Part shown: one piece after another, positions 4,201 to 41,271 of the stretch | Layout: each line of letters opens with the position of its first letter | Numbering within the stretch: position 1 is the first letter of the stretch | Source of the DNA: a virus | Lineage: Duplodnaviria; Heunggongvirae; Uroviricota; Caudoviricetes | Length of the DNA: 42,689 nucleotides | IMG/VR virus record: IMGVR_UViG_2923318301_000002 | Strand: one strand, 5' to 3' | Translations under genes and position numbers: made by a program | Notes under the pieces: generated by a model | Databases searched by the model: none | Told to the model about the DNA's origin: nothing | The model's input: the letters and a program-made list of their open reading frames with translations, nothing else

Positions 4201-4540
4201 CCACCTCTTCCACCATCAGTTCAAAACGGCGCAGTGCCTCAGGACGGGCATCATCCTCCGTCATGGCACCGAGAAAATCATTCAGCGTACCGGGTCGGGA
4301 ATCTTCATACACGGTGATGGTCCCGGCATGTGACGGCGGGAATCCTTCCACCAACAGAATAACGCTGTACTGACCGTACTCAACGTCCATGCTGTAACGC
4401 CCGGCTTCATCCGGATTTTCTGAGGCCAGCGTGTTCACCACCACCGTGGTACTGTTACGTTTTGCTTTCAGCTGGATTGTGCAGTTCTGTACCGGTTTTC
4501 CTGTGCCGTCTTTCAGTACACCTGAAATCTTTACTGCCAT
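1217..4540 (-). CDS. stf: Side tail fiber protein (lambda Stf-like), 3' end interrupted by IS629; last ~13 codons and the stop are IS-derived
   Basis: N-terminus MAVKISGVLKDGTGKPVQNCTIQLKAK… matches remembered lambda Stf; long Ala/Ser/Thr-rich repeat region; ATG at 4540 with GGGG upstream (track start 4546 is GTG); ORF continues into the IS inverted repeat (…TDGQN|LTEPPRVSWRVFYL*). Confidence 0.8.
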   Translation of the reverse strand: MAVKISGVLKDGTGKPVQNCTIQLKAKRNSTTVVVNTLASENPDEAGRYSMDVEYGQYSVILLVEGFPPSHAGTITVYEDSRPGTLNDFLGAMTEDDARPEALRRFELMVEEVARNASAVAQNTAAAKKSASDASTSAREAATRATDAAGSARAASTSAGQAASSAQSASSSAGTASTKATEASKSAAAAESSKSAAATSAGAAKTSEMNAAASQKSAATSASTATTKASEAATSARDASASKVAAKSSETSAASSAGSAASSATAAGNSAKAAKTSETNADNSAQAAADSQTASANSATAAKKSETNAKNSEAAAKVSETNAKASENKAKEYLDKVGGLVSPMTQYDWPVVTGNESFYIKIAKLSDPGSGNCHVTLMVTNAGNYGSPYGNIDFIEISARGLPSLLSADNVSRHLSIRRLGSTGLTDNNQMRYGLVKGDGFIEVWAFQRAFINGAKVAVLAQTARPELYIPDGFVKQTAAPSGYVESPVVRIYDQLNKPTKADLGLSNAMLTGAFGLGGSGISTNGKMSDVEILKALRDKGGHFWRGDKPTGSTATIYSHGSGIFSRCGDTWSAINIDYSTAKIKIYAGNDARLNNGTFSINELYGSANKPSKSDVGLGNVTNDAQVKKSGDVMSGDLDILKETPSIRLKSAKGTAHLWFMNNDGSERGVVWSPENNESLGEIHIRAKNTKGESSGDFIVRHDGRVEARNLKITYKISAATAEFANTSTSSDNTTVSIKGSQHTPLVLTSNNTIKNLSIGFKVDDVDQKYLGIAGDGDLYFGSYSDHTKNSKVITQAKLDSGVTVGGKTTFSDFATFNAGMAGSIEPETIDNKTIDLNDLIIANTVAGSVKYYQCKTVAGGAYITNKPDGVSGNFLLRVESTRKTTGSDYAIMQTLIGSDTKRIYVRFVVNGNWTEWSQVVVSGWNQDVTVRSLTSTTPSKLGGGRVDVLGSTSDYSSMNCAVRGVDSTGTNSAWSVGTSESTGKMLFLKNHRSSAQVLLNGDDGAVQLLSGTVNGATAQALTINKDEVNSTADLVIRKQTGTGNRFALLNSGNSELPVSIRVWGSSTRQNVFEVGTSAAYLFYAQKTTDGQNLTEPPRVSWRVFYL

Positions 4541-4551
4541 ATTCACCCCAC

Positions 4552-4577
4552 AAAAAAGCCCGCCTGAACCGGCGGGC
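4552..4577 (-). terminator. Rho-independent terminator downstream of lom
   Basis: GC-rich hairpin gcccgcc-tgaacc-ggcgggc followed on the minus strand by a T6 run. Confidence 0.6.
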
Positions 4578-4604
4578 TGTCATAACACTGTGTTACCTGG
4601 CTAA

Positions 4605-5204
4605 TCAGAATTTATAACCGACACCCACGATGAAACCGTCAGTGCGCCAGTCACCACTGCCGGAGCCTTCATAAGTAATATCAATGGCCACGGATTCGGT
4701 CGGGTTAAACTGCACGCCAGCCCCCCACGCCAGAGACGTGTTGCTGTGGCGACCGTCATCACTTCCGGTCAGCACGTCGTGCGTTTTCCCCTTGTTGTCA
4801 GTTACGCGGAGATAATCCCCGGAGAAAGTCGACACACGGCTGTAAGCCATACCCGCCATCGCATACGCGCTGAACCATTCATTCACGCGCACAGACGGCC
4901 CCGCCATCACGCTGAACCAGCGGTTACGCACGGAATCTTCATGCCAGCGGGTATCGCTGTAATGCGTTTTTTGCTCATCTTTGGCATTGGCATAACTGAA
5001 TGACGTCACCAGCCCCAGCGTGTCCGTAAATTCATAACGGTATTTCACGTTAATCCCGTTCAGATTATCGCTGCCGGGGACGTTCGTACGGGCATGAAGA
5101 TACCCTGCGCTCAGTGTGGACTGGTGTTCAGACGCCCATGCAGGCGTACCTGATACGGCCAGACAGATGGCTGCGGACAAAATAGCTGCATAAACTTTAC
5201 GCAT
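4605..5204 (-). CDS. lom: Outer membrane protein Lom (Ail/Lom family)
   Basis: 199-aa ORF with signal peptide; near-identical to remembered lambda Lom (MRK.YAAILSAAICLAVSG…GFIVGVGYKF). Confidence 0.9.
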   Translation of the reverse strand: MRKVYAAILSAAICLAVSGTPAWASEHQSTLSAGYLHARTNVPGSDNLNGINVKYRYEFTDTLGLVTSFSYANAKDEQKTHYSDTRWHEDSVRNRWFSVMAGPSVRVNEWFSAYAMAGMAYSRVSTFSGDYLRVTDNKGKTHDVLTGSDDGRHSNTSLAWGAGVQFNPTESVAIDITYEGSGSGDWRTDGFIVGVGYKF

Positions 5205-22830: not shown

Positions 22831-22976
22831 AATCGATTTTACCTATCAATCATTTAATCACATTCCAAAAAAAAGTTTTCGAACCTGCGGCGATGCGAGG
22901 AAAGGTCAGGCGGCGGTACTGAGCAGCCAGGGTTGCAGAGATTTGACCTGCCCTCCCCTACAGATGGGAACTGTTA

Positions 22977-24177: not shown

Positions 24178-24639
24178 CTATCTGCACTGCTCATTAATAT
24201 ACTTCTGGGTTCCTTCCAGTTGTTTTTGCATTGTGATCAGCCTCTCTCTGAGGGTGAAATAATCCCGTTCAGCGGTGTCTGCCAGTCGGGGGCTGGTTGC
24301 ATTATCCACGCCGGAGGCGGTGGTGGCTTCACGCACTGACTGACAGACTGCTTTGATGTGCAACCGACGACGACCAGCGGCAACATCAGCGCGCAGAGTT
24401 TCATTTTCAGCTTTCGCATTGGCTAATTCTCTCGAGTACTTTGCATCGAGTGCAGCAACATCACGCTGACGCTGCTGCATGTCAGCGATAGTGGCGATCG
24501 CCTGCTTCAGCTCACTGACTTTTTTATCACGCTGTTCTTTGTAGGCGATGGCGTTATCACGGTAATGATTGACCGCCCACGACAGGCAGACGATGATGCA
24601 GATAACCAAAGCATAAATAATCGCGGCGACTCTGCTCAC
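24178..24639 (-). CDS. Rz: Spanin inner-membrane subunit Rz
   Basis: Matches lambda Rz (…[20 protein letters not shown]…[18 protein letters not shown]); GTG start overlapping R stop (GTGA). Confidence 0.9.
24237..24419 (-). CDS. Rz1: Spanin outer-membrane lipoprotein Rz1 (embedded in Rz, +1 frame)
   Basis: 60-aa ORF with lipobox LVVVGC and PPPPP tract, matches lambda Rz1. Confidence 0.85.
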
Positions 24640-25169
24640 TGCTCTATCCCCCAACAGGCTAATGCGCTTTCCTGGTCACGACGAATAACCTGTCCATAGC
24701 AGTTATTTGAACGTATGCGGCAATCGCGCCCACCATCTTTTATCCACCAGCGAATCGCCTCGCATGCGCCCTTACGATCACCGGCATTCAGCCGCTTATA
24801 AAACGTCGACGGGAAACACTTACCGGGGCCAATGTTATAGGGACAGAATGACGCTATACCCGCTTTTTGTGGTTCGGTCAGTAGTACTTTAATATTGCGC
24901 TCCACCCATGCCAGCGCCTTATCACGCTCAATGGCGTTGACCTGGTCGCATTTTTCCTTCGACAGTTTCATACCGGGAAAAACGGGTTTTCCATCCACCA
25001 TCGTGGCACCCCGACAGATGGTCCAGATGCCGGACCCATCGCGGTATGCCGTTGTGTGGTTACCTTCTTTTTCATCCAGAAACTGGTCGAGAATATCAGG
25101 CGCGGGCGCACCGACGGCAATCAGTGCCAGAACGGCAGCCGACAGGCCGTATCTGATTTTTGCGTTCAT
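24636..25169 (-). CDS. SAR endolysin (T4-lysozyme-like, Qin RrrQ/P21 R type)
   Basis: N-terminal Ala/Gly-rich weakly hydrophobic segment ([18 protein letters not shown]) then E-x8-D-x5-T catalytic triad ([16 protein letters not shown]). Confidence 0.9.
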
Positions 25170-25232: not shown

Positions 25233-25583
25233 TTAAGGTTGTGATTCCGGAGGAGTCTTCAGAGAACCAGTAATTCTTCCCGGTAGCTTTCCTTTGTAGG
25301 TTATCCATACATTCTGCGCCTCTAAAATTACGGGGCGCTTTTCCGGCGACTGCTCATCCCCTTCACATAACCCGGCAGCAACATCCAGGAAGACCTGTCT
25401 GATACTCATTCTGGCTGCTGCCTCATAAAACTCCAGCGCGGCACCTTCAACACGGTCCAGCGAGATGTCCAGGTCAAAAATTTCACCGTCAAAGCGTTTT
25501 TTGTCCCGTAACGCTAAAGTTACCGTAACTTTATTCTCAAAATTGCGGATCCCTTTCACAATCAGTTCATAGTTTTGAGTCAT
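25233..25583 (-). CDS. YdfR-like protein (DUF1327-type) inserted between holin and endolysin
   Basis: 116-aa ORF with GGGGAGAG RBS; resembles remembered Qin YdfR and sits in the same position between holin and endolysin. Confidence 0.5.
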   Translation of the reverse strand: MTQNYELIVKGIRNFENKVTVTLALRDKKRFDGEIFDLDISLDRVEGAALEFYEAAARMSIRQVFLDVAAGLCEGDEQSPEKRPVILEAQNVWITYKGKLPGRITGSLKTPPESQP

Positions 25584-25587
25584 TGAA

Positions 25588-25803
25588 TTACTCTCCCCGT
25601 GCCGCCTTACGACGGTCCTCTCTGATTTTGAAATACAGGTTAGTCAGATATGTCAGCAGCCCAAACAGCAGACTCCCCAGCACGCCTATTGCCGCCCACT
25701 GAGACGGGGAAACCCTGTCCAGCAACTGCAGGAACCAGTAGCCCGTTCCCACCGCTGACGTGGTGTATGACACACCTGTTGTGATTTTTTCCATCTGGTC
25801 CAT
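25588..25803 (-). CDS. Pinholin (S21-like class II holin, 71 aa)
   Basis: [10 protein letters not shown]… with two in-frame Met codons (possible dual start), two TM segments and charged C-terminus; matches remembered P21 S21. Confidence 0.85.
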
Positions 25804-26110
25804 ACCCCGTCTCCCGTTATCCGGAAGCTGACAACAATAAAAAAGCCACCAGTTAACTACTGATGGCTCTGATAACTCATGCAAGCGTCTCAGACGATCC
25901 ACTGACACTACCGGTGAGTTTAACGATACCTTCCATTTGACTGGCTCACTTTTTATGATGATGCCGGTGTATTTATCTCCAGCACCAGACTTTCTATCTC
26001 AACGCCATACGTTGCATTTTTGGTAATATCCGTCAGCGTCAGTGCATTTAGTCCCACTGCCAGACCGTCTTTTATGGTCTGGAATGCCGGGCCAGTACGA
26101 TGACGTAGTA

Positions 26111-26299
26111 TCACTCCGGCTCAGTTGCACCACTGACCACCACATCACCTTCTGCTGCAATCGCCTGCATCAGGGTATAAGGGGTTATGGCCACCGGACT
26201 ACCAAACGGCTGCCAGCCCTCTTTCAGTTTATGTGTCAGCTTTTCCGCAAGATCTGACGGCGGCGCCGCCCTGACAACATCATAGTGTTTAAATGCCAT
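26111..26299 (-). CDS. Hypothetical protein (possibly DUF1737-like) upstream of the lysis cassette
   Basis: 62-aa ORF MAFKHYDVVRAAPPSDLAEKL…EGWQPFGSP… with GGTGGA RBS; the longer track ORF begins inside the IS30 terminal repeat. Confidence 0.4.
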   Translation of the reverse strand: MAFKHYDVVRAAPPSDLAEKLTHKLKEGWQPFGSPVAITPYTLMQAIAAEGDVVVSGATEPE

Positions 26300-26330
26300 G
26301 GTTCTTTCCACCATCTGAAAAATAATTCCT

Positions 26331-27396
26331 TGAATTGTCAAACCAAGTGCAACGATTTTTTGAAGTAAACTTCATAAGGTGTTTTCCAACCTAAACATTT
26401 ACGTGGTCGTAAATTCAGTTTATTGATCACCTGTTGAATATCAACTTCGCTCCACTGATTGATGTCTTGGTGCTTCGGAAAGTATTCACGAAGTAACCCA
26501 TTTGTATTTTCATTCGTTCCCCGTGTCCACGGTTGATGCGGCTCGGGGAAGTAAAATTCTACACCCAGTGCTTCTGTTACCAAACGATGTTGGGCAAATT
26601 CTTTACCACGGTCTGGCGTAATTGACCGCAATATATGTGAATCCAGCAATTCAATCATGGCTTTTTGGACTGCTTCGGCTTTTTTGGCAGGAATTTTCTT
26701 CACCAACTCAAAACGACTTTTGCGTTCCGTCAGCGTCAGCAAACAAGCTCCACCCGCTTTACCCAGTACGGTATCGGCTTCCCAATGTCCAAAGCGACTG
26801 CGATTTTGCGCCGAAATGGGACGGTCGTTCAAATGGTTGGATATCTGAATTTTGCCACGTTTTTCATGATGATTTTTTGTATGCCGTGTTTTGCCTTTGT
26901 GGCGCAGTTTGCGACTGGCTTTGCGTTCGCCTATATCAAACAACCCTGAATAAATACCACGATAAATGGTTGAATAACTAATGGATAATTCAGATTTTTC
27001 CAATTTTAATCGTGCGCTGATTTGTTCGGGCGACCAGTTTTCTGTCAGAAACTTTTCTTGCACCAAATTGAAATATTCAGGCTGCTCTAATTTGCGCTGT
27101 GCTTTGCTATTTTGACGATGCTTCAAATAGCTGTTTTGTGCGTTCGTTGCACTGTAGCTTTCTAGAGCGTGTCGTTTCAGCTCGCGAGAAATGGTGCTGG
27201 AGCTACGTCCCAGTGCTTTGGCAATTTCTGCTTGTTTTTTGCCCTGTGCGAGTAAAATCATTATCTTTTCTCGCTCGTTTATTGTAAGATGTCGGTAGGA
27301 AGTACTCATCATTTGGAAATGGTTTTTGTGTGGAAACAAAATTATATTCTAGTTGATGAGTACTTCTTTTTTTGTTGCACTTGGATTGTAAATTCA
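26331..27396 (-). mobile_element. IS30-family insertion sequence (~1.07 kb)
   Basis: Single transposase ORF flanked by imperfect terminal inverted repeats (left …tgaattgtcaaaccaagtgcaac, right gttgcacttggattgtaaattca); ends uncertain by ±1-2 bp. Confidence 0.7.
26338..27312 (-). CDS. IS30-family transposase
   Basis: N-terminal HTH (…LTINEREKIMILLAQGKKQAEIAKALGRSSSTISRELKR…) and DDE region (…HWEADTV…RGTNENTNGLLR…); start at ATGATG 27312. Confidence 0.85.
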   Translation of the reverse strand: MMSTSYRHLTINEREKIMILLAQGKKQAEIAKALGRSSSTISRELKRHALESYSATNAQNSYLKHRQNSKAQRKLEQPEYFNLVQEKFLTENWSPEQISARLKLEKSELSISYSTIYRGIYSGLFDIGERKASRKLRHKGKTRHTKNHHEKRGKIQISNHLNDRPISAQNRSRFGHWEADTVLGKAGGACLLTLTERKSRFELVKKIPAKKAEAVQKAMIELLDSHILRSITPDRGKEFAQHRLVTEALGVEFYFPEPHQPWTRGTNENTNGLLREYFPKHQDINQWSEVDIQQVINKLNLRPRKCLGWKTPYEVYFKKSLHLV

Positions 27397-27631
27397 GCTC
27401 TTTAAAATACCAGACATGTAACACAGAAAAAACACAAAACCATACCTTAAATAGAAACCTGATCATCAAGCAGATATGCATGGATAAACTACAAGACGAG
27501 ATATAAACCACCCTGCATTTAAATAAACAATAAACAACATCAGAAAAATAATTCTGCTCTATGGTTTATATTCAAAAATATCATTTATACTTTTCAGAAC
27601 ATCACCAGCAAGGCATAAACAAGGAAGCTAA

Positions 27632-27967
27632 ATGAAGTGGATTGTAATTGATACAGTTATCCAGCCATCATGCGGAATATCTTTTTCAGTCATATGGAGT
27701 AAAGTAAAATTAATAATCTGGTATCAATCGGATGCTTTCTTACCTCCTGAAAGTATATTTACACTGACTCACACAGGTATCATGCTCAATAACAAAGTGC
27801 TACCTGTAACCATTTACAACGTAGTACCATTCAATAAAACATTCTGGAATTTAATCAAAAACAGCCAGGAATGCCCTACAAATACAGATAACGTATTGAA
27901 TGAATGCTTTAATAACCGTTGCATTCTGCAAATATGTCCTTATGGACTAAAACAACAAAGTCCATAA
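27632..27967 (+). CDS. Hypothetical protein, AT-rich accessory gene (111 aa, 6 Cys)
   Basis: AAGGAAG RBS 6 nt upstream of ATG; strongly AT-rich relative to the prophage backbone; convergent with late transcription. Confidence 0.45.
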
Positions 27968-28002
27968 GGAGTTTACTCACATCTGACAAAATCAATATAA
28001 AC

Positions 28003-28193
28003 AGCCCCTCCGGAGAGGGGCTGGAGAGTGGCGCTATGTGCCATTGCATGGTGCCGGGTGCCTCCCGGTGAATTCAGTACCAGCACCTGAATCCGCGATT
28101 ATCCCATATACCTACTCGCTGATTACCCCTCCGCACAGGGGGATTCACCATGCGAAATTTTTTAACAAACTTCCCGCCGGCCAGACAATAATC
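28003..28193 (-). repeat. Structured element copy A (candidate ncRNA; paralogue of copy B)
   Basis: Shares with copy B a terminal hairpin AGCCCCTCCGGAGAGGGGCT and conserved blocks (GCATGGTGCC.GG.GCCTCCCGGT.AATTCAG; GGGGGATTCACCATGCGA; TTTTTAACAAA…GCCAGACAAT.ATC); stem partners are conserved while loops differ. Confidence 0.5.
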
Positions 28194-28465
28194 GCCAGCC
28201 TGAATTATGAGCAACGTGGCATTTTACGGGAAAACTGTTTTCTGCAGTAAAAAGGCCCGCCGGAGCGAGCCTGGAAGGATAGCGGTCATGTGATGCCGGT
28301 TTCCCGGTAACTCAGCATCGGTATCTGAGTCAACGTTTTCTCTACTGGGTCATTTCCGATACGTTCCGCCTTCCGGCAGACTTTCATCACGTCAGAAAAT
28401 ATAGCACCCTGAGTAACAGGACAGTACTCAGAATTCAGGAAACTGTGACACATCCTGCACAGAAA

Positions 28466-28663
28466 AGCCCCTCCGGAGAGGGGCTGAAGTATAGCCTAAT
28501 TTCTGTCTGTCGCATGGTGCCAGGGGCCTCCCGGTAAATTCAGCCTGTCTACTGAATTTGCATGTTCTCTGGATCATACACTTTGCCAGATGCCCCGCCG
28601 CTGAGGGGGATTCACCATGCGATGTAATTTTTAACAAATTCTCCGGCAGCCAGACAATCATCA
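28466..28663 (-). repeat. Structured element copy B (candidate ncRNA; paralogue of copy A)
   Basis: As copy A; on the minus strand the terminal hairpin is followed by TTTTCTGTG. Confidence 0.5.
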
Positions 28664-28856
28664 AGCTGTGGAATTGTGAGGTATTTAAAAATTTCAACGG
28701 GTAACTGATACCCTGCTAATCGCCTGATGCTTTCTTTTTCAGCAACGGGAAAGCAACAACCACACACCCGCCACCAAAACACCATCAGACAGCACCGACA
28801 TTATCCGGCTGCTGAAGTCCACCATCACCACCAGAAACAACAGGAGTGCAACCACA

Positions 28857-28900
28857 GCTGCTTAGAAGGCAATTGCTCTGCCCGGCTGAGCTAACAACGC
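28857..28900 (-). other. tRNA-like 5' fragment (acceptor, D arm and anticodon arm with UCU-like anticodon); no T arm or 3' acceptor
   Basis: GCGTTGTTAGCTCAGCCGGGCAGAGCAATTGCCTTCTAAGCAGC folds as the 5' two-thirds of a tRNA; downstream sequence gives no T stem or ACAACGC-CCA. Confidence 0.3.
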
Positions 28901-29000
28901 TGAATACCGATAATGGACCGCCATCGGGGACCCGCCCCCGCACCAACAACCCTGTTATCGTGTCGTCTGCTCTTCCTGATAAGCTAATGGCGGTTTGTGA

Positions 29001-29076
29001 TGGTGGCCCTTGCTGGATTTGAACCAGCGACCTGGCGATTATGAGTCGCTCGCTCTCACCACTGAGCTAAAGGGCC
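29001..29076 (-). tRNA. tRNA with CAU anticodon (Met or Ile2/lysidine type; ileZ-like of lambdoid phages)
   Basis: 76-nt cloverleaf folded by hand: acceptor GGCCCTT/AAGGGCC, D arm GCTC…GAGC, anticodon loop CTCATAA, T arm GCTGG-TTCAAAT-CCAGC, 3' CCA encoded. Confidence 0.9.
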
Positions 29077-29113
29077 GGGAGTAGAATAATAACGGTCCGT
29101 AACTAATTCCGCA

Positions 29114-29137
29114 ATAAAAAACCCGCTCGGCGGCGGG
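29114..29137 (-). terminator. tR'-like intrinsic terminator downstream of the late promoter
   Basis: Hairpin cccgccgccgagcggg followed on the minus strand by TTTTTTAT, ~45-50 nt downstream of the predicted −10. Confidence 0.6.
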
Positions 29138-29186
29138 TTGTAGAAACTCTTCTAACGTCAGGCATAAAAAGCCCATTATTATGACG

Positions 29187-29214
29187 AATTTACCACAGAT
29201 TCCGGAAAAATCAA
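29187..29214 (-). promoter_or_regulatory. Late promoter pR'-like (−35 TTGATT, 16-nt spacer, −10 TAAATT) immediately downstream of the Q-like gene
   Basis: Sigma-70-like hexamers on the minus strand; −10 TAAATT is the same hexamer I recall for lambda pR'. Confidence 0.45.
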
Positions 29215-29219
29215 CCTTG

Positions 29220-30041
29220 TTACCTAGTTACCTTTTTTAACTGCCGCTCAGCCCATGCTTCTTCAATATCAAACCGGGTCACCAGCGCATCATAGAATTT
29301 CTTAACTGTTTTTTCCCATGACGCGCGTGTTATCTGGTTTGTCACCTCGCATATAGCATTAAATGTCTCCGTTGATGGTAGTCTTTCATAGCCACGACCA
29401 CCACAACGCTGGCAGTCTCTGATAACAGGCATACCACGTTTTACCGACTCTTCACGATGAATGGCGACACCACGCCCACGGCAATCCTTACAGGCGGTGG
29501 AAACCTCACCCTTTCCGCCACACTCCGGACAGGCAACTTTTACCACCTCCCTGACTTTTTTCCATTCTTCCCAGTAAGACGAATACACACCTTTCGTACA
29601 CTTTGCCCATACCGGCGGCTTACCATCCGGATACTGGACCTTGTTTGTAAAAACTACGCTTTCAATAAATTTTTCCCCATAGCAACAAGGGCACTGCTTT
29701 TTACTCGCTGCGCTGCGGGCATAATCCTCAAAAGCGTACGAAGCCATAATGCGCATCACTAACGGTTTTATTTCTGCCGGAAGTTTTCTCAACGCCGCAA
29801 CACGATCGCACCGACTGAGTGCATAATCTGCCAGTAATTCTGTTGCCCGCGCCCTGTCATTCATACTGATGCCCATTTTCCCCAGGAACGCAGAAAACCC
29901 CATCTCAGCCCGATTCTGTGTCATGCCCTGCGCGGCCATCACATCAGTGATACTCAGCGCATCTTTTGACGTTGAGGCCGATGCATCGGTCAGGCCAGGG
30001 GATTTTGGGGAGTAGTATTTCGGTAAATCTTCCAGTTTCAT
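29220..30041 (-). CDS. Putative late-gene antiterminator (Q-position) with four DnaJ-type CxxCxGxG zinc-finger motifs
   Basis: 273-aa ORF after rusA (ATGA overlap) and before the pR'/tR'/tRNA block; motifs CPCCYGEK, CPECGGKG, CKDCRGRG, CQRCGGRG; function inferred from synteny. Confidence 0.5.
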   Translation of the reverse strand: MKLEDLPKYYSPKSPGLTDASASTSKDALSITDVMAAQGMTQNRAEMGFSAFLGKMGISMNDRARATELLADYALSRCDRVAALRKLPAEIKPLVMRIMASYAFEDYARSAASKKQCPCCYGEKFIESVVFTNKVQYPDGKPPVWAKCTKGVYSSYWEEWKKVREVVKVACPECGGKGEVSTACKDCRGRGVAIHREESVKRGMPVIRDCQRCGGRGYERLPSTETFNAICEVTNQITRASWEKTVKKFYDALVTRFDIEEAWAERQLKKVTR

Positions 30042-32748: not shown

Positions 32749-33006
32749 TTAGTTGTTCATAAAAGTGCACAGCTTTAACCAGTTCTTCTGATGTAACCGG
32801 GACTGGCGGGGCAGTGAATAAGGCCTGAATTTCATAGTTCGGCCTGTCGTTACAATCCTCTTTTTTCGGTACATACTTCCAGTCACCAGACCACTACTTC
32901 TCCTGAAAGTCCGTAACGCCTTTTTTTTCACGTAGCGATATCGCCATGCCACTGTTTTTGCTTGCCCCGCCGTTTCATGCCCTTCCTGATAATTAACCTC
33001 GCTCAT
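32749..33006 (-). CDS. Hypothetical protein, probably frameshifted
   Basis: ATGA start overlap with the upstream small ORF; contains A8 and A6 runs; a protein-like stretch (…EIQALFTAPPVPVTSEELVKAVHFYEQLKRENPPASGNLITDSQIRQ*) continues in the −1 frame to ~32690 without a start codon. Confidence 0.3.
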   Translation of the reverse strand: MSEVNYQEGHETAGQAKTVAWRYRYVKKKALRTFRRSSGLVTGSMYRKKRIVTTGRTMKFRPYSLPRQSRLHQKNWLKLCTFMNN

Positions 33007-33179
33007 TCATCGCCCCACTCATCACAATATGCTTCGACCGGAGTTTTTCCTGCTTCATAATCATCACGCCATGCTTCAGCATCAGCAGCACTGCCACCAC
33101 GTAACTCTGCATAGTCCATTAACAGTTCATGCCATTCTTCAAAACTGACGTTGTATTTAGTTGAACCAAAATCAGCCAT
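33003..33179 (-). CDS. Hypothetical small acidic protein (58 aa)
   Basis: GAGGAA RBS; ATGA-coupled to the downstream ORF; not in the track (<60 aa). Confidence 0.35.
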   Translation of the reverse strand: MADFGSTKYNVSFEEWHELLMDYAELRGGSAADAEAWRDDYEAGKTPVEAYCDEWGDE

Positions 33180-33354
33180 TTTGTTCTTCCTCTTCGTCTT
33201 TTATTTCGTGATATGAGTAATTGCAGTAGTTAAAGAAAATATCTTTTGCTTCGTCATGTATTTCATCAGGCGTCGCATCATCATCCACTTCGAATTCATC
33301 CTCGAAATCTCCACCGGCTATTCCCGTTTCAATAATTATTTTAAACTTTCGCAT
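33172..33354 (-). CDS. Hypothetical small acidic protein (60 aa)
   Basis: ORF with an upstream GC hairpin; overlaps the next ORF start by 8 nt. Confidence 0.3.
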   Translation of the reverse strand: MRKFKIIIETGIAGGDFEDEFEVDDDATPDEIHDEAKDIFFNYCNYSYHEIKDEEEEQNG

Positions 33355-33447
33355 TTAACTACCGCCCTTTCGGGCGGCCTCCTGATGTTCTGAGGGTGCA
33401 GAAATCCCTCCGGTTAAGGATTAAATTTTTAACAGAGCTAAATTTAA

Positions 33448-33804
33448 TTATTCAGTTCTGGATTTTGTCGCCCTGCGTATCCGCGCTTTCGCGTTACGCT
33501 CAATCTGAATTAGCTTTTCTATATTTTTTCGCCTTTCCCGCTCCTCCTGACGCAAGAGCCTTACATCATCTGCCAGTCTGGTTTCTCTTTTCGCCACAGA
33601 GAGCATCCAGTCAAATGGCTCCACAACTGCACCGCAGATTTTACAGCGGACCTGACGCTCTTTTTCGTCAACCCGGACAGAGGCGTGATGACAATATGGT
33701 CTTTCCGATGGCTCATAAAGAAAATTAACCTGATTACGAGGGTCATCCTCTTTTACCGGAAATAAAACGATATTGCTTAACTCATCCTCTGGTTTTATTT
33801 CCAT
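33448..33804 (-). CDS. Hypothetical protein with putative zinc-binding motif (CHH…CKIC)
   Basis: 118-aa ORF from ATG 33804 with AGGAGAGGAG RBS. Confidence 0.5.
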   Translation of the reverse strand: MEIKPEDELSNIVLFPVKEDDPRNQVNFLYEPSERPYCHHASVRVDEKERQVRCKICGAVVEPFDWMLSVAKRETRLADDVRLLRQEERERRKNIEKLIQIERNAKARIRRATKSRTE

Positions 33805-33861
33805 GCTCCTCTCCTTTGATGCGAATGCCAGCGGTAATTGAAGCCTGATAGCTAATTTCAC

Positions 33862-34284
33862 TCACAGTACCGCCTCCTGAAAATTACCCTGATAGAAAGC
33901 CAGTACACGCTGCATAGCTTCACTCTTCCGGCACTCGCGACAGATTATGTTTAGGCGACTGTCGTAGCGACGTATTTCTCCGTCAGGTAACGACCAGATA
34001 AGGTCCGGATCAACCACAACCGGTTTCTTCAGCTTTGCCCTCGATAATTTTTTGCGGGCATTTTGCCAGTCTTTACGAGCCTGTTCAGACGGGAATAACC
34101 CGTAGCCAGAATTGTATACATCGCCACTGGCAACCAGCTCTCTGGCCAGAACGCTCATCAGATATCTTGTTGCCCCAGTTTTAGCTTCCAGTTGTCGTAA
34201 CGTCTCGCGCCCACTCTGGCGTACGAGTTCAAGAACCTGTCCTTTAATTTTTTCCCGCTCTTCTTGTGTAAAAACTTTTGCCAC
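33862..34284 (-). CDS. Hypothetical protein (140 aa) downstream of the replication gene
   Basis: ORF in the early right operon; C-terminal CRECRK motif; no recognisable P/DnaC-like helicase loader. Confidence 0.5.
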   Translation of the reverse strand: MAKVFTQEEREKIKGQVLELVRQSGRETLRQLEAKTGATRYLMSVLARELVASGDVYNSGYGLFPSEQARKDWQNARKKLSRAKLKKPVVVDPDLIWSLPDGEIRRYDSRLNIICRECRKSEAMQRVLAFYQGNFQEAVL

Positions 34285-34324
34285 AAGCCCTCCTGAAAAT
34301 TACCTCATGACCAGAAATTAACAC

Positions 34325-35395
34325 TTACCCCCTGAAGCCCGGCGGAATTTCGTTATCCGGTTCAGAAATATGATTCACACAACGCTGGTTGTTCGTGCCG
34401 CTTACCGGGAGCAGCCAGGGGTTTTCAAAATTCCGGTCCGGTCCAAAAAACGTCGTCGCTCGCTGAACAAATTCCGTTCCCGTTTTCCCGGTAGCCGCAA
34501 GGTATCTTGCGTAACGCCTCACGCCATCCAGCATGGCCTCTGGTGGCACCCCCTCGCGTAATCTGGCTTTCCAGGCACTGAAAGCGGATTTCTTCGGGTT
34601 TGCCCCGGCACGCAACGGGTATTTCCGCCAGACCTGTTCGAACACATCAGGATAATCCACTCGTCCCACAGGCTGCCCGGTGTTTTCCGGGACTACCCGA
34701 TCGGCTTCCCGCTGAATGGCGGAATCGGCTTCAGGCTGCTGAAGTTGGTGTGATTGCTCCTGCCTTGCGGTCATCACCTGCTGCACAGCGCCCGAATCGG
34801 CTTTCAGCGCATACGCTGAATCGGCTTCCGGTGTCGTGCCTGCGGGCTGGCCAGGAGTGACGGTCTGAACATCCCCTGCCTGGTTCGTGGCGTTTTTTAC
34901 GCCATGGACCATAGTGTTTTGATCTTCTTGATCTGTATCTTTATCTGTATCTTTATCTGTCGTGACTCGTCGTGACATGTGCGTGACATTTCGTGACTCG
35001 CCGTGACAATCGCCATTTTGTTCCCGCTTTCTTTCCCTCTCTCGCTGCGCCCTCTTGCGCTCTGCCGGAGATTTTGCGGTTTGCGAAATATTGCCGTTGT
35101 CCTCTTTCAGCACCTGGCGTTTTTCCCATCCAGTGATTAAATCACCATCAAGTACCCGCCCCTGCATCGTCTGCAAAATTGAATCAATTACCTCTTCTGT
35201 CACGTCGAGCGCACTTGCCAAATCTTCTGTCGTGACATCAATGTGACCTCGCGTGACATTTCGTGACGCGCTCACCAGGAGGTGGATATACACTGCCATC
35301 ACTGTTGCAATTGGCTGCCCTGACACCCTGGCAATTGTTCGCCACTTAGGGTCATTTGGCATGTCATGCCATAATCTGAGCCAGGCGTTAGCCAT
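34325..35395 (-). CDS. Replication initiation protein (O-like), iteron-like repeats within the coding sequence
   Basis: N-terminal winged-helix-like region; low-complexity acidic linker (DKDTDKDTD) encoded by tandem repeats; C-terminal domain resembling phage replication-protein C-termini; ATG 35395 with GAGGTGA RBS. Confidence 0.65.
   Translation of the reverse strand: MANAWLRLWHDMPNDPKWRTIARVSGQPIATVMAVYIHLLVSASRNVTRGHIDVTTEDLASALDVTEEVIDSILQTMQGRVLDGDLITGWEKRQVLKEDNGNISQTAKSPAERKRAQRERERKREQNGDCHGESRNVTHMSRRVTTDKDTDKDTDQEDQNTMVHGVKNATNQAGDVQTVTPGQPAGTTPEADSAYALKADSGAVQQVMTARQEQSHQLQQPEADSAIQREADRVVPENTGQPVGRVDYPDVFEQVWRKYPLRAGANPKKSAFSAWKARLREGVPPEAMLDGVRRYARYLAATGKTGTEFVQRATTFFGPDRNFENPWLLPVSGTNNQRCVNHISEPDNEIPPGFRG
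34931..35010. repeat. Iteron-like direct repeats, cluster 1 (candidate origin)
   Basis: 12-bp tandem ATCTGTATCTTT x2.5 followed by five CGTGAC motifs at 34961, 34971, 34982, 34992, 35002 (10-11 bp phasing). Confidence 0.5.
35229..35268. repeat. Iteron-like direct repeats, cluster 2
   Basis: CGTGACAT-type motifs at 35231, 35242 (TGTGAC), 35252, 35262 with ~10-bp phasing. Confidence 0.45.
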
Positions 35396-35466
35396 ACTCA
35401 CCTCTTCTGATACCGAATCTTTTTACTCACGAGTTGCCGGAAGCGATTCGATATGACTATTGTCAG

Positions 35467-35892
35467 TCAATGTACTGCCACAGCATTTCCTGCCGGGCCA
35501 CCACGGTTCATCTGATTGAAACCGGCGATTGCCACTGCGACAAAATCATCAGCGTCTCTCACCAGTCGCTCCCGCGTCTCCACCAACTCCCGAAAATAAG
35601 CTGAACTGTGGCTGCGCATTCTGGCCACCAGCAAAGGTGGCATTGCCTTTTCGATCGCTGGTAACAACGCCTGAATTTTTTCAACTGCATCAGGGGTGTC
35701 TTTCTCCACCCAGCGGAAAATTTTCTGGGTATTGCGAGCCAGGGCTTCCGGATGGCTGTCGTCATACAGTTCCGGGAACGTCATTCCCAGCTCGAAATAC
35801 GCTTTGGTAATTTTCGCAGCCGGTACTTTTTCGCCGTCCGGATGCGCCCAGGCATTCATCGCCATGCGGATGTGTTCATGCTTGATTTTCAT
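35467..35892 (-). CDS. cII-position protein, possibly YdaT family
   Basis: 141-aa ORF from ATG 35892 (MKIKHEHI…) with AAGGGGGG RBS, immediately after the Cro-like gene; family assignment from memory and synteny. Confidence 0.45.
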   Translation of the reverse strand: MKIKHEHIRMAMNAWAHPDGEKVPAAKITKAYFELGMTFPELYDDSHPEALARNTQKIFRWVEKDTPDAVEKIQALLPAIEKAMPPLLVARMRSHSSAYFRELVETRERLVRDADDFVAVAIAGFNQMNRGGPAGNAVAVH

Positions 35893-36118
35893 GAATCCCC
35901 CCTTGGTTAGAAGGCGGATTATGATCAGAACCGGGAATGACAACCGTCGGTATGTGTAACTCATATTTGAGCGCCCCGGCAGTGACTGCCTGAATTAGCA
36001 ACGCCCATTTCCACGGAACCTCTTCCCCCCACATGCTGACTGTGGTTTTTGACGTTCCTAGAGCTGCGGCTGTTTTAACAACTCCGCCAAAATAGCCTAA
36101 TACTTCTGATTTTTTCAT
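35876..36118 (-). CDS. Cro/YdaS-like HTH regulator
   Basis: 80-aa ORF with HTH (…GGVVKTAAALGTSKTTVSMW…), divergent from the CI-like repressor. Confidence 0.7.
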   Translation of the reverse strand: MKKSEVLGYFGGVVKTAAALGTSKTTVSMWGEEVPWKWALLIQAVTAGALKYELHIPTVVIPGSDHNPPSNQGGIHENQA

Positions 36119-36209
36119 GAGTCGCTCCATAAAACTGAACGTCAAAAGTTTAATAATCAAAACCAAAGAAAGTCAAGAAACAAAACCATCTGTGTTTTAA
36201 AATCAAAAC
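36119..36209. promoter_or_regulatory. Divergent immunity control region (OR-like operators, PR/PRM)
   Basis: 91-bp AT-rich intergenic region between divergent cro-like and cI-like genes; contains TGTTTTAAAATCAAAACAT, whose half-site ATGTTTTGAT recurs downstream of cI. Confidence 0.5.
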
Positions 36210-36848
36210 ATGAGCAAGCAAACTATATCTGAACGCATAACCCAACGTATGCATGCGCTAAACCTGAAAGGCAAAGACCTTGTCAATGGCACTGGCGCAT
36301 CAAAAGGCTCCGTAAGTCAATGGATGAACGGTGGAGGAGCGCCGTCCTCGCGTTACATAAGTTCACTGGCAAAAATATTGAAAGTAAACGAAAATTGGCT
36401 TCTTAATGGAGGAGAGTTAAATACAGGTGATTCGCTTGATCTATCTTTACCGCCGATAAAAACGGTTCCGCTACTATCACTTCAGCAGGCAGCAAGCTGG
36501 AGTGATTATATGAAAAATTCCTCAATAACCTCTTGTGTGCAGCTTGTCGGAGAAATCCCGGTCAATACCTTTGCAGTTGTTCTAGAGAGTGACAGTATGT
36601 CAACATCTGGTGGGGGAGTTTCCATCCCAAATGGTTCAACAGTTTTTGTTGATCCCGATCGAACCGTACAACCAGGAAATATTGTCCTTGCCTTACCCAA
36701 AGGGACCACAACACCTGTCATTCGTAAACTGGAGATAGAAGGGCCGGATATTCTTTTAGTCCCCACGAATCCTCGCTACCCTTCAATTATGCTGGATGAT
36801 CTATCTTGCATATTGGGCGTATGCTTTAAAATTCAACAAGATATTTAA
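36210..36848 (+). CDS. CI-like repressor (N-terminal HTH, C-terminal S24 LexA-like peptidase domain)
   Basis: HTH (…LKGKDLVNGTGASKGSVSQWMNG…) and S24 motifs (…ESDSM…, …VIRKL…); no Shine-Dalgarno upstream of the ATG. Confidence 0.85.
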   Translation: MSKQTISERITQRMHALNLKGKDLVNGTGASKGSVSQWMNGGGAPSSRYISSLAKILKVNENWLLNGGELNTGDSLDLSLPPIKTVPLLSLQQAASWSDYMKNSSITSCVQLVGEIPVNTFAVVLESDSMSTSGGGVSIPNGSTVFVDPDRTVQPGNIVLALPKGTTTPVIRKLEIEGPDILLVPTNPRYPSIMLDDLSCILGVCFKIQQDI

Positions 36849-36913
36849 CCAACCTCATCTATTTGATTAACTGTATGCCATCGTGGTGATGGCTTAACAG
36901 CTGCCTGCTTAAA

Positions 36914-36961
36914 ATGTTTTGATAAAAAAACATTGACCTGAAAAGTTCGTTTTTCTAAACT
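36914..36961 (+). promoter_or_regulatory. OL/pL-like operator and promoter for the leftward operon
   Basis: Palindrome-like ATGTTTTGATAAAAAAACAT overlapping −35 TTGACC, 17-nt spacer, −10 TAAACT. Confidence 0.4.
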
Positions 36962-37279
36962 TCATTCATTCCCTCACCCCATCCTACAGAATGCAGGGCA
37001 ATACTTCGAGTTACCAGGCAGTGGTCAGGGGTTAAGTAGCCAGCCCGAGGCGTAAGAACATGACGGCAGGGTTCAACTTTAATAACTATGCAGCAGGTTT
37101 TTGTTCCGCTACCCCGGCGTTAAGGGGAAACAGAGGATTTCTCAGTGGGCGAAGTCAAACATCAGAATGGAAGGCGTCCAGGGATCAGCAAAGAAACAGC
37201 GATGGCGCTTTATATTGATATCAGCGCCATTGCCGGACAGGTAAGAATTATCAGAGCGGTAACTAAGCGGTATGCGCCT

Positions 37280-37480
37280 TTACTTCAGAAAGTCTCTGGT
37301 GAGTGCACCGAAGATATTGTCAACGATTTCGTCATCAAACTGCGAGGACTCATCTTCAGTTACAAGGTGACCACAATTTTTGCAGATGGCTCCCGCGAAA
37401 CTGTCAGAGCCCTGCGGTTTAAAGGATGTGTCAAAGACTTCGCCACCACATTCTGGGCAAGAAAACTTGATTGTATTCAT
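37280..37480 (-). CDS. Small zinc-ribbon protein (66 aa), hypothetical
   Basis: CPECGG…(18 aa)…CKNCGH motif; GAGAGGAA upstream of ATG 37480; conflicts with an overlapping plus-strand ORF (37145-37501), so uncertain. Confidence 0.35.
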   Translation of the reverse strand: MNTIKFSCPECGGEVFDTSFKPQGSDSFAGAICKNCGHLVTEDESSQFDDEIVDNIFGALTRDFLK

Positions 37481-37572
37481 AACCAATTTCCTCTCGAGTA
37501 ACAGACCCCTCAGAGGATACCACCTCGCCTGACGTGGTTAAAAGCAGGCAACGCTAACCACAAGGAGCCGAC

Positions 37573-37791
37573 ATGCAGAAACGAGAACCCGTCATCATCG
37601 CGCCAGACTATACCGATGATGAACTTTATGAGTGGATGCGCCAGAAAATTAATGCAGCGCAGGATTTGAAATGGGCCAATGAAGCCAGGGCTAAGCAGGC
37701 TGAAAATCTGTCCGCTCTGGAGCAGGATATCACCAGGCTGGAAAAAGCAGCGGCATTAAGCATTGCCAGAATGATTACATACCCGCGTTAA
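37573..37791 (+). CDS. YdfC-like hypothetical protein (72 aa) in the dicB operon
   Basis: AAGGAG RBS 6 nt upstream; lies upstream of DicF/dicB as ydfC does in Qin. Confidence 0.55.
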   Translation: MQKREPVIIAPDYTDDELYEWMRQKINAAQDLKWANEARAKQAENLSALEQDITRLEKAAALSIARMITYPR

Positions 37792-38132
37792 TAGATAACC
37801 AACGAAGCTAAGGTTGGTAATTAAGGAGTTCTCCACGGGTGAGGTGGAGTGCGTGCGCCGGACACGGGTGAGCATCCGGCACTGACAGTTTACTGAAAGG
37901 ATATTTCCCTGAAAAGTCAGACCATAACGCGAAAGCGCACGGCGAGGTAGCTGGTTCATAGATAGCCTGTCGTTAAATTTTCGTCGACCGTGCGCTTCCG
38001 GTTGTGGCAATCCGCGAAATGGCGCGGCGGTAAGTATGGCGGGGTTATTCCTTCCCCCGTTGAGGACACCGGGTTGTCAGGTTGACCATACGCTTAAGTG
38101 ACAACCCCACTGCAACGCCCTCTGTTATCAAT

Positions 38133-38190
38133 TTTCTGGTGACGTTTGGCGGTATCAGTTTTACTCCGTGACTGCTCTGCCGCCCTTTTT
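38133..38190 (+). ncRNA. dicF: DicF-like Hfq-dependent sRNA (cell-division inhibitor RNA)
   Basis: tttctggtgacgtttggcggtatcagttttactccgtgactgctctgccgcccttttt matches remembered DicF, including the terminator hairpin and U-tail; immediately upstream of dicB. Confidence 0.7.
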
Positions 38191-38359
38191 AAAGTGAATT
38201 TTGTGATGCGGTGAATGCGGCTAAGCGCACGCGGAACAGTTAAAACCAAAAACAGTGTTATGGGTGGATTCTCTGTATCCGGCGTTAATTGTTAACTGGT
38301 TAACGTCACCTGGAGGCACCAGGCACCGCATCACAAAACTCATTGTTGAGGGCGCGATA

Positions 38360-38548
38360 ATGAAAACGTTATTACCAAACGTTAATACGTCTGAAGGTTG
38401 TTTTGAAATTGGTGTCACTATCAGTAATCCTGTATTTACTGAAGATGCCATTAACAAAAGAAAACACGAACGGGAGTTATTAAATAAAGTATGCATTGTT
38501 TCAATGCTGGCCCGTTTACGTCTGATGCCAAAAGGATGTGCACAATGA
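38360..38548 (+). CDS. dicB: Cell division inhibitor DicB
   Basis: 62-aa ORF MKTLLPNVNTSEGCFEIGVTISNPVFTEDAINKRK… near-identical to remembered Qin DicB; ATGA-coupled to ydfD. Confidence 0.85.
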   Translation: MKTLLPNVNTSEGCFEIGVTISNPVFTEDAINKRKHERELLNKVCIVSMLARLRLMPKGCAQ

Positions 38549-38736
38549 ATCCAGTATTTGCACTTATTCTGACGGTTTTTCTTGTTTCCGGAGAGCCAGT
38601 TGATATTGCAGTCAGTGTTCACAGAACAATGCAGGAATGTATGGCAGCAGCAACCGAACAGAAAATTCCAGGCAACTGTTATCCGGTCGATAAAGTTATT
38701 CACCAGGATAATAACGAAATCCCGGCAGGATTTTAA
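38545..38736 (+). CDS. ydfD: YdfD-like small secreted/lysis-associated protein
   Basis: 63-aa ORF with N-terminal hydrophobic segment MNPVFALILTVFLVSG…, matching remembered YdfD downstream of dicB. Confidence 0.8.
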   Translation: MNPVFALILTVFLVSGEPVDIAVSVHRTMQECMAAATEQKIPGNCYPVDKVIHQDNNEIPAGF

Positions 38737-38829
38737 AACAGCACCGTAATAAATATCCAGTTTCATTCTTATATGTCAGCAATGGCAGAGATTTGTTCAC
38801 CCTTAAATCTGTGATGAGGTTTACCAATA

Positions 38830-41271
38830 ATGAGCACTGATAAAGAAGAATTTGCACTATATTGCGAAGCAAAAAATGACAAAGTAAGAAAACGCCTAGG
38901 AATTAAAGGTGGTTTTTACTGGACTACAGCAAAAAAATTATCTGTTGCAATCTCCCGCTGCATTACCGCAATGGATGACAACGATTATGATGAAGACGAC
39001 TTTAAAAAACCCGTCCGCGTCAATTTGCCCGTTGTTGACGACCTTCCGCCAGAAGGCGTGTTTGATACTGAATTCTGCAACCGCTATGAAAAAGGCGGGA
39101 AAGATGGCATCACAATGACATTTATCGGCCCTTCCCCCTCTGTTCAGGACAAACCAGCCAGCACTGACAATACCAACATCAACGGCGAAGCCATGACTGA
39201 GATTGAGGAGAGCATGCTTCTGCCTGTCTCCGGTCAGGAACTGCCCATTCGTTGGCTTGCTCAACACGGCAGCGAAAAACCAGTAACGCACGTTTCACGC
39301 GACGAACTCCAGGCATTACACATTGCACGGGCTGAAGAACTACCGGCTGTTACTGCCCTGGCTATTTCGCATAAAACCAGTCTGCTCGACTCGCTGGAGA
39401 TTCGCGACCTCCACAAACTGGTTCGTGACACTGACAAAGTTTTCCCTAATCCTGGTAATTCAGACCTGGGACTAATAACTGCTTTTTTCGAAGCATACCT
39501 AGACGCTGACTACACTGATCGGGGTCTGCTGACAAAAGAGTGGATGAAAGGAAATCGTGTTTCACGCATCACCCGCACGGCTTCCGGTGCTAATGCTGGC
39601 GGTGGGAACAAAACCGATCGCAATCCGAATTTAGTACACACCCTCGACACACTGGATGTGGAGATTGCAGCAGCCACACTTCCGATGGATTTTAATATTT
39701 ATGAAATTCCGGGCAGCGTTTATCGTCGCGCAAAAGAAGTAGTCCTGAACAAAGAAAGTCCGTTCAAAGAATGGTCCGCAGCACTTCGTGCAACCCCGGG
39801 TATTCTGGACTATTCCCGCGCCGCTATTTTTGCACTTATCCGAAGCGCACACCCTGAATTTTATCACTACCCGGGACGCCTTCAGGGGTATATCAACGCC
39901 TATTTGACGGAAACTGATCACGAGAACCCCAGCAAGGAAACTCTCACAGCTGCCCGGCATACGCCGGAAAAAGATATCCTGGAAGAAATTAACCGCGAGG
40001 TGGTTACTGAGCGTGAAACAGAAGAAGAAAAACCACAACCATCTGACGCAATGGCAGGTGAACAGGCAACAACTGAAACAATGGAACCGGATACAACTGA
40101 ACATGGCCAGAACGCGCAGTCGCTGGATGCTCAGTCGCAGGTGAGTTCCGCTAACCAAGTAAAAGTCACCGCTGACGAAGTAAACAAAATTATGCAGGCA
40201 GCCAATATCAGCCAGCCTGACGCCGATAAGTTACTTGCTGTATCGCGTGGTGAATTTGTTGAGGGGATTAGCGACCCTAATGATCCGAAATGGGTCAAAG
40301 GGATCCAGACTCGCGATTCTGTGAACCAGAACCAGCATGAATCGGAACGGAACGACCAAAAAGCGGAACAAAACAGCCCAAATGCGTTACAAAACGAGCC
40401 AGAAACGAAACAATCCGAACCAGTGGCGCAACAGGAAGTGGAAAAAGTCTGCACCGCCTGCGGTCAGACCGGCGGCGGCAACTGCCCTGATTGTGGCGCG
40501 GTGATGGGCGACGCAACATACCAGGAAACATTCGATGAAGAGTATCAGGTTGAAGTTCAGGAAGATGATCCGGAGGAAATGGAAGGCGCTGAACATCCAC
40601 ACAAGGAGAACACTGGCGGCAATCAGCATCACGATAGCGATAATGAAACTGGCGAGACGGCAGATCACTCAATTAAGGTGAACGGTCATCAAGAAATCAC
40701 ATCCACCAGCAGGACGTGTGACCATCTAATGATCGACCTTGAAACCATGGGAAAAAATCCTGATGCCCCGATCATCTCAATAGGTGCAATATTTTTCGAT
40801 CCGCAAACCGGAGATATGGGACCGGAATTTAGTAAGACTATCGATCTGGAAACTGCTGGCGGAGTCATTGATCGGGACACCATTAAATGGTGGCTTAAGC
40901 AATCACGCGAAGCGCAATCTGCCATTATGACCGATGAAATCCCGTTAGATGATGCACTGTTACAATTGCGGGAATTTATCGACGAAAACTCCGGTGAATT
41001 TTTTGTTCAGGTCTGGGGAAATGGAGCCAACTTCGACAACACGATTTTGCGCCGTTCATACGAACGGCAGGGGATCCCCTGCCCGTGGCGTTACTACAAC
41101 GATCGCGATGTACGCACAATCGTTGAGCTGGGGAAAGCCATAGACTTCGATGCCAGAACGGCTATTCCATTCGAAGGTGAGCGCCATAATGCACTTGATG
41201 ACGCCCGTTACCAGGCAAAATACGTTTCAGTTATCTGGCAAAAACTGATCCCGAGTCAGGCTGATTTTTAA
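38830..41271 (+). CDS. Large early protein with C-terminal DEDDh (DnaQ-like) 3'-5' exonuclease domain (often annotated exodeoxyribonuclease VIII in prophages)
   Basis: 813-aa ORF; C-terminus carries Exo I (MIDLETMG), Exo II ([12 protein letters not shown]) and Exo III (HNALDDARY) motifs; central acidic Glu/Gln-rich linker; CTACGQ…CPDCG zinc ribbon. Confidence 0.7.

Follow-up and report, generated by a model that had tools for sequence, protein, structure and literature searches.

A complete, intact single copy of the IS30-family element ISApl1 (26329-27398, 1070 bp) is present in the Q-to-lysis 'moron' zone of the lambdoid prophage analysed here. From the sequence and layout of the region, this simple insertion is most likely neutral or nearly so for lysis and virion production, a reading to which we assign a probability of roughly 70%. 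The DNA analysed was a single stretch of 42,689 nucleotides (IMG/VR record IMGVR_UViG_2923318301_000002), referred to throughout as the window, with all positions counted from its first letter. The window is that of a lambdoid prophage with a Q of the lambda type and a lysis set of S21 pinholin, endolysin and Rz; its head and tail genes are HK97-like. The element adds approximately 2.6% to the length of this phage genome.

The element was identified from its transposase, its ends and its DNA sequence. Identity to copies annotated as ISApl1 was 100% across all 1070 bp, and the score of the transposase ORF against NF033563, the NCBIfam model for IS30 transposases, was 309 bits, with a cut-off of 80. 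The protein, encoded on the minus strand, contains an N-terminal HTH_38 domain (59.4 bits) and an rve integrase core, and the stop codon of its gene is located 9 bp inside the end of the IS. On an identical copy of ISApl1 in plasmid pMRY15-131_2 the annotated CDS is likewise 975 bp. Taken with the terminal inverted repeats, these matches bear out the original prediction that an IS30-family element was present. The features of the element and of its immediate borders are as follows:

26338..27312, minus strand: ISApl1 transposase CDS, 324 aa, beginning MMSTSY..., the start which RefSeq also assigns to identical copies
27372..27398, minus strand: left inverted repeat (IRL), on the transposase-promoter side and to the right in the window, GCTGAATTTACAATCCAAGTGCAACAA; it includes TACAAT, which would serve as the -10 element of the promoter at the circle junction
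26329..26355, minus strand: right inverted repeat (IRR), to the left in the window and facing DUF1737 and the lysis genes; the complement of CTTGAATTGTCAAACCAAGTGCAACGA in transposase orientation
26327..26328, no strand: target-site duplication TC, copy 1, from the empty-site alignment with E. coli 4/2-1 (locus L001)
27399..27400, no strand: target-site duplication TC, copy 2, from the same alignment with L001

ISApl1 originates from Actinobacillus pleuropneumoniae and flanks mcr-1 in Tn6330. The copy described here has the same sequence over 1070 bp, the same type of inverted repeats, a 2-bp target-site duplication and an AT-rich target, but it is solitary and is not accompanied by mcr-1, which was not found in the list of open reading frames of the window. 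With the IS30 prototype it shares a single DDE transposase with an N-terminal HTH, a nearly full-length ORF, short inverted repeats and a 2-bp target-site duplication. IS30 itself is 1221 bp long and prefers a palindromic hot-spot consensus, whereas ISApl1, at 1070 bp, uses AT-rich targets. The features that define ISApl1 and the IS30 family, namely the transposase model match, the inverted repeats, the target-site duplication, the length and identity and the AT-rich target, were all found. The element is of a known kind, in a common prophage; its location is new, the type of feature is not, and no new element type or mechanism is implied.

A repeat search located a 23-bp inverted repeat core, 87% complementary, at 26331-26353 (plus strand) and 27374-27396 (minus strand). 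A degenerate version of the repeat pattern occurred at exactly two places in the 42.7-kb window, with 0 expected in shuffled sequences, and as the search returned just these two ends no second copy of ISApl1 was found in the window. When the two ends were aligned, inverted repeats of 27 bp with six mismatches (21/27 matching) were obtained, and the published inverted repeats of ISApl1 are also 27 bp in length with six mismatches (PMC5404521). The ends which had originally been proposed, 26331 and 27396, stand for the 23-bp repeat core, but the true borders of the element as determined from the empty site are 2 bp wider on each side.

The comparison with an IS-free homologous prophage that was suggested along with the original prediction could be made with E. 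coli 4/2-1 (L001, NZ_CP023834), and alignment to this genome defined both the target site and the 2-bp TC duplication. The empty site in this strain reads ...GAAAAATAATTC/TTTAAAATACC. The 20-bp core of the target has a GC content of 5% and the surrounding 40-bp window is in the lowest 2.2% of the prophage; the insertion site is where the AT content peaks within the 260-bp intergenic region (31% GC) that separates the divergent genes iraM and DUF1737. The reported target preference of ISApl1 is for AT-rich DNA with a central GC bias (PMC5404521), and the low GC content of the target found here agrees with that AT-rich preference. When positions 8812-42689 of the window were compared with the IS-free record ON470619 the two were collinear with 99.98% identity, the only differences besides the IS being seven substitutions and one intergenic 1-bp indel. 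Since the rest of the prophage is unchanged relative to ON470619, and since a 2-bp duplication flanks the element, the single ISApl1 arrived by clean, simple insertion, without deletion or rearrangement. The closest 'phage' records, ON470619 among them, contain host genes (for example potC-lolC) and look like predicted prophages; given these host flanks, such records provide no evidence of inducibility.

Copies of the 1070-bp ISApl1 at 100% identity were present in 234 of the 5426 complete E. coli genomes, which together have 932 such places, 636 of them chromosomal; matches at 100% were also recorded in 449 plasmid records. One identical copy is located directly upstream of mcr-1.1 on the IncI2 plasmid pMRY15-131_2. 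The same prophage segment without the IS was observed in many E. coli genomes, strains 4/2-1 and Sanji being two with an empty site. The exact DUF1737 protein occurred in 17,121 collection blocks, and the arrangement was that of the empty site in 10/10 among the matches listed. Using a 3.8-kb query across the site, no place with at least 80% coverage was found among the 5426 complete E. coli genomes. A search with the exact 36 nt of the left junction found no match in GTDB representative genomes or JGI metagenome contigs, and a 76-aa ORF spanning the junction was not on record. As judged by these comparisons, the insertion is probably a recent, strain-specific event.

The genes on the late strand are arranged in the order Q, tRNA-CAT, three STnc100 copies, iraM (on the opposite strand), ISApl1, DUF1737, a 53-aa ORF, holin, YdfR/DUF1327, endolysin and Rz, and are followed after Rz by an HNH gene and by terminase, portal, capsid and tail genes. 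The genes between the IS and the structural region are listed below:

26111..26299, minus strand: DUF1737 gene, the first late-strand gene past the IS (PF08410, 61.7 bits)
25953..26114, minus strand: orf3, a small ORF of 53 aa between DUF1737 and the holin gene, annotated in the homologous loci including L001 and L002
25588..25803, minus strand: S21-type class II holin of the pinholin family, 71 aa (PF04971, 110.6 bits), annotated as 216 bp in L001
25233..25583, minus strand: YdfR/DUF1327 gene (PF07041, 142 bits)
24636..25169, minus strand: endolysin (phage lysozyme; PF00959, 83.9 bits) with a SAR-like hydrophobic N-terminus
24178..24639, minus strand: Rz spanin (PF03245, approximately 168 bits)

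The local context had been described as a pinholin-type lysis cassette with its first preceding gene about 30 bp from the IS and with the IS co-oriented with late transcription, and each of these points was upheld. The holin is of the S21 type by its PF04971 match, the distance from the end of the IS (26329) to the ATG of DUF1737 (26299) is 29 bp, and the transposase gene reads from the minus strand, as do Q and the holin, endolysin and Rz genes. The N-terminus of the holin, M-D-Q-M, is a dual start. The endolysin translation, as read by eye, has a hydrophobic N-terminus rich in Ala, Leu and Gly and an E-8-D-5-T motif, and in the homologous loci Rz1 (PF06085) was called embedded within Rz. With respect to the DUF1737 ribosome binding site, occlusion by IS sequence is not predicted, as the SD/AUG region was not more paired when the IS was present (mean unpaired probability of 0.46 with the IS versus 0.29 without it).

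Upstream of the insertion on the late strand, the region from Q to the IS contains the following features:

29220..30041, minus strand: late antiterminator Q, lambda-Q type (PF03589, 182.8 bits), with an inserted zinc-finger segment
29187..29214, minus strand: candidate pR', TTGATT-16 nt-(TGg)TAAATT followed by a -10-like TAATAAT, positioned directly after the Q stop codon
29111..29139, minus strand: tR'-like intrinsic terminator, a 7-bp GC-rich stem and a T-run, the hairpin itself spanning 29139-29120
29001..29076, minus strand: tRNA with anticodon CAT, in the late leader
27993..28650, minus strand: STnc100 sRNA, two full copies and one degenerate copy (Rfam RF02076; 138, 132.5 and 30 bits against a gathering score of 47)

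Q matched the Q-lambda structures 7UBM/7UBN with E = 1.3e-39 and differs from lambda Q in carrying the zinc-finger insertion, which is approximately 70 aa in length. The candidate pR' matches at 8/12, which is under the threshold of the promoter scan, and it was assigned from position and consensus only. Each STnc100 copy ends in a terminator-like hairpin (at 28485, 28272 and 28023), and across 25500-29400 as a whole 14 terminator-like sites were observed versus 3.4 expected. Two further RNA family matches were treated as chance, these being Trp_leader over the pR'/tR' region (25.7 bits versus an Rfam gathering score of 41) and Ms_IGR-7 inside the IS (27.7 bits versus 45).

According to the original prediction, late transcripts must cross the IS to reach S-R-Rz. 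The architecture agrees with this, as the lysis genes are separated from the Q/pR' region by the IS, and a promoter scan of the late strand found no promoter-like site between the IS and the holin gene. The scope of the claim was however understated. Downstream of the tR'-like hairpin the minus strand carries not only the lysis genes but also those for terminase, head and tail, so that polarity, if present, would extend beyond S-R-Rz to the entire late operon. In the sequence of events which we propose, late transcription would start at the pR'-like promoter just past Q, Q would render the polymerase resistant to terminators, and the Q-modified polymerase would then run through the 1.07 kb of IS before reaching DUF1737 and the lysis and structural genes.

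Between the candidate pR' and the site of insertion, the native leader runs for approximately 1.8 kb; it is mostly non-coding, is antisense to iraM and contains four terminator-like hairpins, so that late expression in the IS-free phage would already depend on processive antitermination by Q. No terminator-like site was found inside 26329-27398 on either strand. It is because this leader with its four hairpins has to be crossed in any case, and because the IS contributes no terminator-like site of its own, that we consider the insertion most likely to be neutral. In phage lambda, RNA polymerase loaded with Q is resistant over tens of kb to terminators of both the intrinsic and the Rho-dependent kind, and classical work shows that lambda antitermination relieves the polarity of IS elements, which counts against polarity in the present case. 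By analogy with this relief by lambda N and Q the same logic may apply, with a polymerase modified upstream ignoring termination signals within the IS; the element would be polar for a polymerase without Q modification and is expected to be non-polar for one which carries it.

The alternative that the IS is polar, either through Rho-dependent termination in untranslated IS RNA or through a roadblock at the inverted repeats, with late lysis or a defective prophage as the consequence, must be weighed against the following feature within the element:

27299..27366, minus strand: ISApl1 leader hairpin; the tandem AUG start codons of the transposase are paired within its 13-bp stem

This hairpin has a predicted fold of -23.1 kcal/mol (z = -5.1), and 0/200 shuffled sequences were as stable. 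As it would sequester the transposase start codons, read-through transcripts are probably poorly translated over the IS, adding approximately 1 kb of extra untranslated RNA, which together with the position of the IS, past the candidate pR' but ahead of every late gene, would favor polarity. For the same reason, the idea that translation of the transposase shields read-through RNA from Rho was dropped. A crude C-over-G (rut-like) profile gave no clear Rho-loading signal; C exceeded G by up to 0.18 in some 78-nt windows of the sense strand, a point in favor of polarity, but the overall composition of the IS was unremarkable, with a C/G ratio of 1.02. Transposase or HU bound to the inverted repeats could form a roadblock, and related prophages (L008 and L011) have lost a working holin gene to IS3-family elements, though there the elements are located within the gene and interrupt it directly. 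Against these points stand the absence of a terminator-like hairpin from the IS and the native, mostly untranslated leader, for which robust antitermination by Q is needed anyway, and we therefore regard polarity of the IS as unlikely.

It had also been suggested that the IS could supply an outward promoter. The IRR contains a perfect TTGACA facing outward (26336-26341, minus strand), 7 bp from the end of the IS. When IRR and IRL are joined through a 2-bp spacer, the derived sequence is TTGACA-17-TACAAT, an 11/12 match, and this TTGACA may therefore be a functional -35 by design. In the IS30 prototype, abutted ends 2 bp apart likewise make a strong junction promoter, and the ends of the present copy are, on their sequence, compatible with a circle-junction promoter of the IS30-family type. 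Circles of ISApl1 with a 2-bp spacer have been shown experimentally elsewhere (PMC10916398). At the insertion site a hybrid promoter could be formed from the -35 of IRR and a -10 in the flank, or transcription could begin from an internal promoter close to the 3' end of the IS (TTGATA-16-TAAACT at 26444-26417 on the late strand), either of which would give constitutive, Q-independent expression of DUF1737, orf3 and possibly the holin in the lysogen. The flank hexamer at 17 bp spacing is however TCAGAT, which matches at only 3/6 and is without the critical A at position 2, and the predicted start of the hybrid promoter is inside the SD region of DUF1737. Promoter-like matches in the region were at chance level (7 versus 6.0 +/- 2.4 in shuffles), there is a terminator-like hairpin (25870-25842) between orf3 and the holin gene, and constitutive expression of a holin would be counter-selected. 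Given the poor flank -10, the chance-level matches and the hairpin before the holin gene, the IS is unlikely to drive the lysis genes constitutively, and an effective outward promoter is the least probable of the explanations considered here. In the empty site a candidate GTTACA-17-AATTAT (8/12), which is split by the IS, was judged too weak to interpret.

On its other side the insertion faces a gene which is divergent from DUF1737 and antisense to late transcription:

27632..27967, plus strand: iraM, anti-adapter protein (NCBIfam PRK09919, 162 bits), annotated in L001 and L002

The insertion could alter regulation of iraM, and with it RpoS stabilisation, either by displacing silencing or activating sequences or by transcription from the IRL end, any effect on lysis then being incidental. 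The ATG of iraM is 233 bp from the IRL end, and the IS is located in the 31%-GC intergenic region which the two divergent genes share. In addition, Snesrud et al. reported an independent ISApl1 (TSD AT) which interrupted iraM and was fixed in all serial ST-617 isolates from one patient (PMC5404521). The AT-richness of the region can alone explain two independent hits, however, and the best native promoter-like site (27524-27552, plus strand) and everything nearer to iraM remain intact. An effect through iraM is thus very improbable, and neutrality or near-neutrality for lysis and virion production remains the preferred reading.

IS elements are common in the Q-to-lysis zone of lambdoid prophages. 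In K-12 the nmpC::IS5 of DLP12, between quuD and essD, is a further example. The ISApl1 insertion resembles insertions in the Q-to-S region of other lambdoid prophages in being placed after Q and either before or inside the lysis module. It differs from them in that many of those insertions interrupt genes or mark decayed prophages, whereas the ISApl1 insertion is intergenic and the prophage is otherwise unaltered. In a survey of Stx phages, transposases and IS elements were recorded near the stx genes (PMC8136144).

A solitary chromosomal ISApl1 such as this one serves as both an annotation and an epidemiological marker. It signals that the host carried, or still carries, an active source of ISApl1, typically an mcr-1 plasmid. 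It also illustrates that this element finds an easy target in the AT-rich moron region between Q and the lysis genes of lambdoid prophages. If the phage is viable, it could move ISApl1 between strains. A stronger version of this, which we consider rather doubtful and slightly more so than polarity, is that the prophage is fully inducible and packages ISApl1, thereby acting as a vehicle for an element that mobilises mcr-1, while Q-driven read-through couples the supply of transposase, or its suppression by the leader hairpin, to the lytic cycle. In a weaker form, the insertion would rewire the control of iraM and RpoS. On the stronger version, a lambdoid temperate phage would be a horizontal carrier of the element that mobilises mcr-1.

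The leader of the ISApl1 transposase gene was predicted to fold into a stable structure on the strand of late transcription.

27299-27366, minus strand: stable hairpin within ISApl1 (-23.1 kcal/mol, z = -5.1)

Within this structure both of the transposase gene's tandem AUG start codons are paired with a segment 40-60 nt upstream, and the loop contains TATAAT. In some other IS elements, fold-back devices stop translation of transcripts which read through into the element, and the ISApl1 leader hairpin resembles such devices. When IRR (26329-26355) and IRL (27372-27398) were joined via a 2-bp spacer as a virtual circle junction, the sequence TTGACA-17-TACAAT was created (11/12). As read from the sequence, it corresponds to the strong promoter that a circle or dimer intermediate of an IS30-family element is expected to form at its junction.

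Upstream of ISApl1 with respect to late transcription, the following features were assigned.

27632-27967, plus strand: iraM, encoding an anti-adapter which stabilises RpoS
27993-28650, minus strand: STnc100 sRNA copies (Rfam)
29220-30041, minus strand: Q antiterminator gene, product aligned to lambda Q

The prophage iraM gene and the DUF1737 gene are divergently oriented, with iraM running antisense to the late transcripts. The Q-iraM-DUF1737-S module of which it is part is extremely common, the DUF1737 protein being present in 17,121 collection blocks. An iraM copy with an independent ISApl1 insertion inside the gene has been published (PMC5404521).

Between Q and iraM, the STnc100 copies are arranged as a direct repeat of approximately 467 bp. 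Two of these are full copies, scoring 138 and 132.5 bits against an Rfam gathering score of 47, while the third is degenerate (30 bits, below the same gathering score). Every copy ends in a terminator-like hairpin, and the copies lie within the late-operon leader, 3' of the candidate pR' and tR'. With respect to Q itself, residues 1-113 and 183-273 of the prophage protein align to lambda Q, the two aligned segments being separated by an insertion of approximately 70 aa which is not part of the alignment. DnaJ-type CxxCxGxG zinc-finger motifs match Q residues 171-218, at the C-terminal edge of this insertion.

Apart from ISApl1, the sole indel which distinguishes the window from its IS-free collinear relative ON470619 is at window position 22951, where 1 bp (C in ON470619) is missing from the window; this site is intergenic, flanked by the small terminase gene on one side and the HNH gene on the other. 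The ON470619 record continues after the integrase gene into the host genes potC, potD and lolCDE (32974-40218), the pot operon adjoining the prophage. As the other "phage" records of the phage collection that come closest to the window likewise include host genes after the integrase gene, these records are predicted prophage regions and not sequenced virions.

On the lysis-gene side of ISApl1, a further hairpin was found.

25842-25870, minus strand: terminator-like hairpin whose 12-bp stem precedes TTTTATTG

It is situated between a 53-aa ORF and the holin start, and is enclosed by a longer GTG-started ORF (25588-25908). In IS-free relatives, the DUF1737 gene (window 26111-26299) is annotated by RefSeq as a pseudogene with its C-terminus missing, followed by the 53-aa ORF as a separate hypothetical gene (window 25953-26114). 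The DUF1737 gene and the 53-aa ORF may represent one longer ancestral gene which has been split.

Two loci from other genomes, L008 and L011, carry the same Q-iraM-DUF1737 module as the window. In both (about 3497-4860), the holin gene has been cut to 59 aa by IS3-family elements, and the lysis genes downstream of the truncated holin gene have been replaced. These loci are real examples of IS-mediated decay of this lysis cassette.
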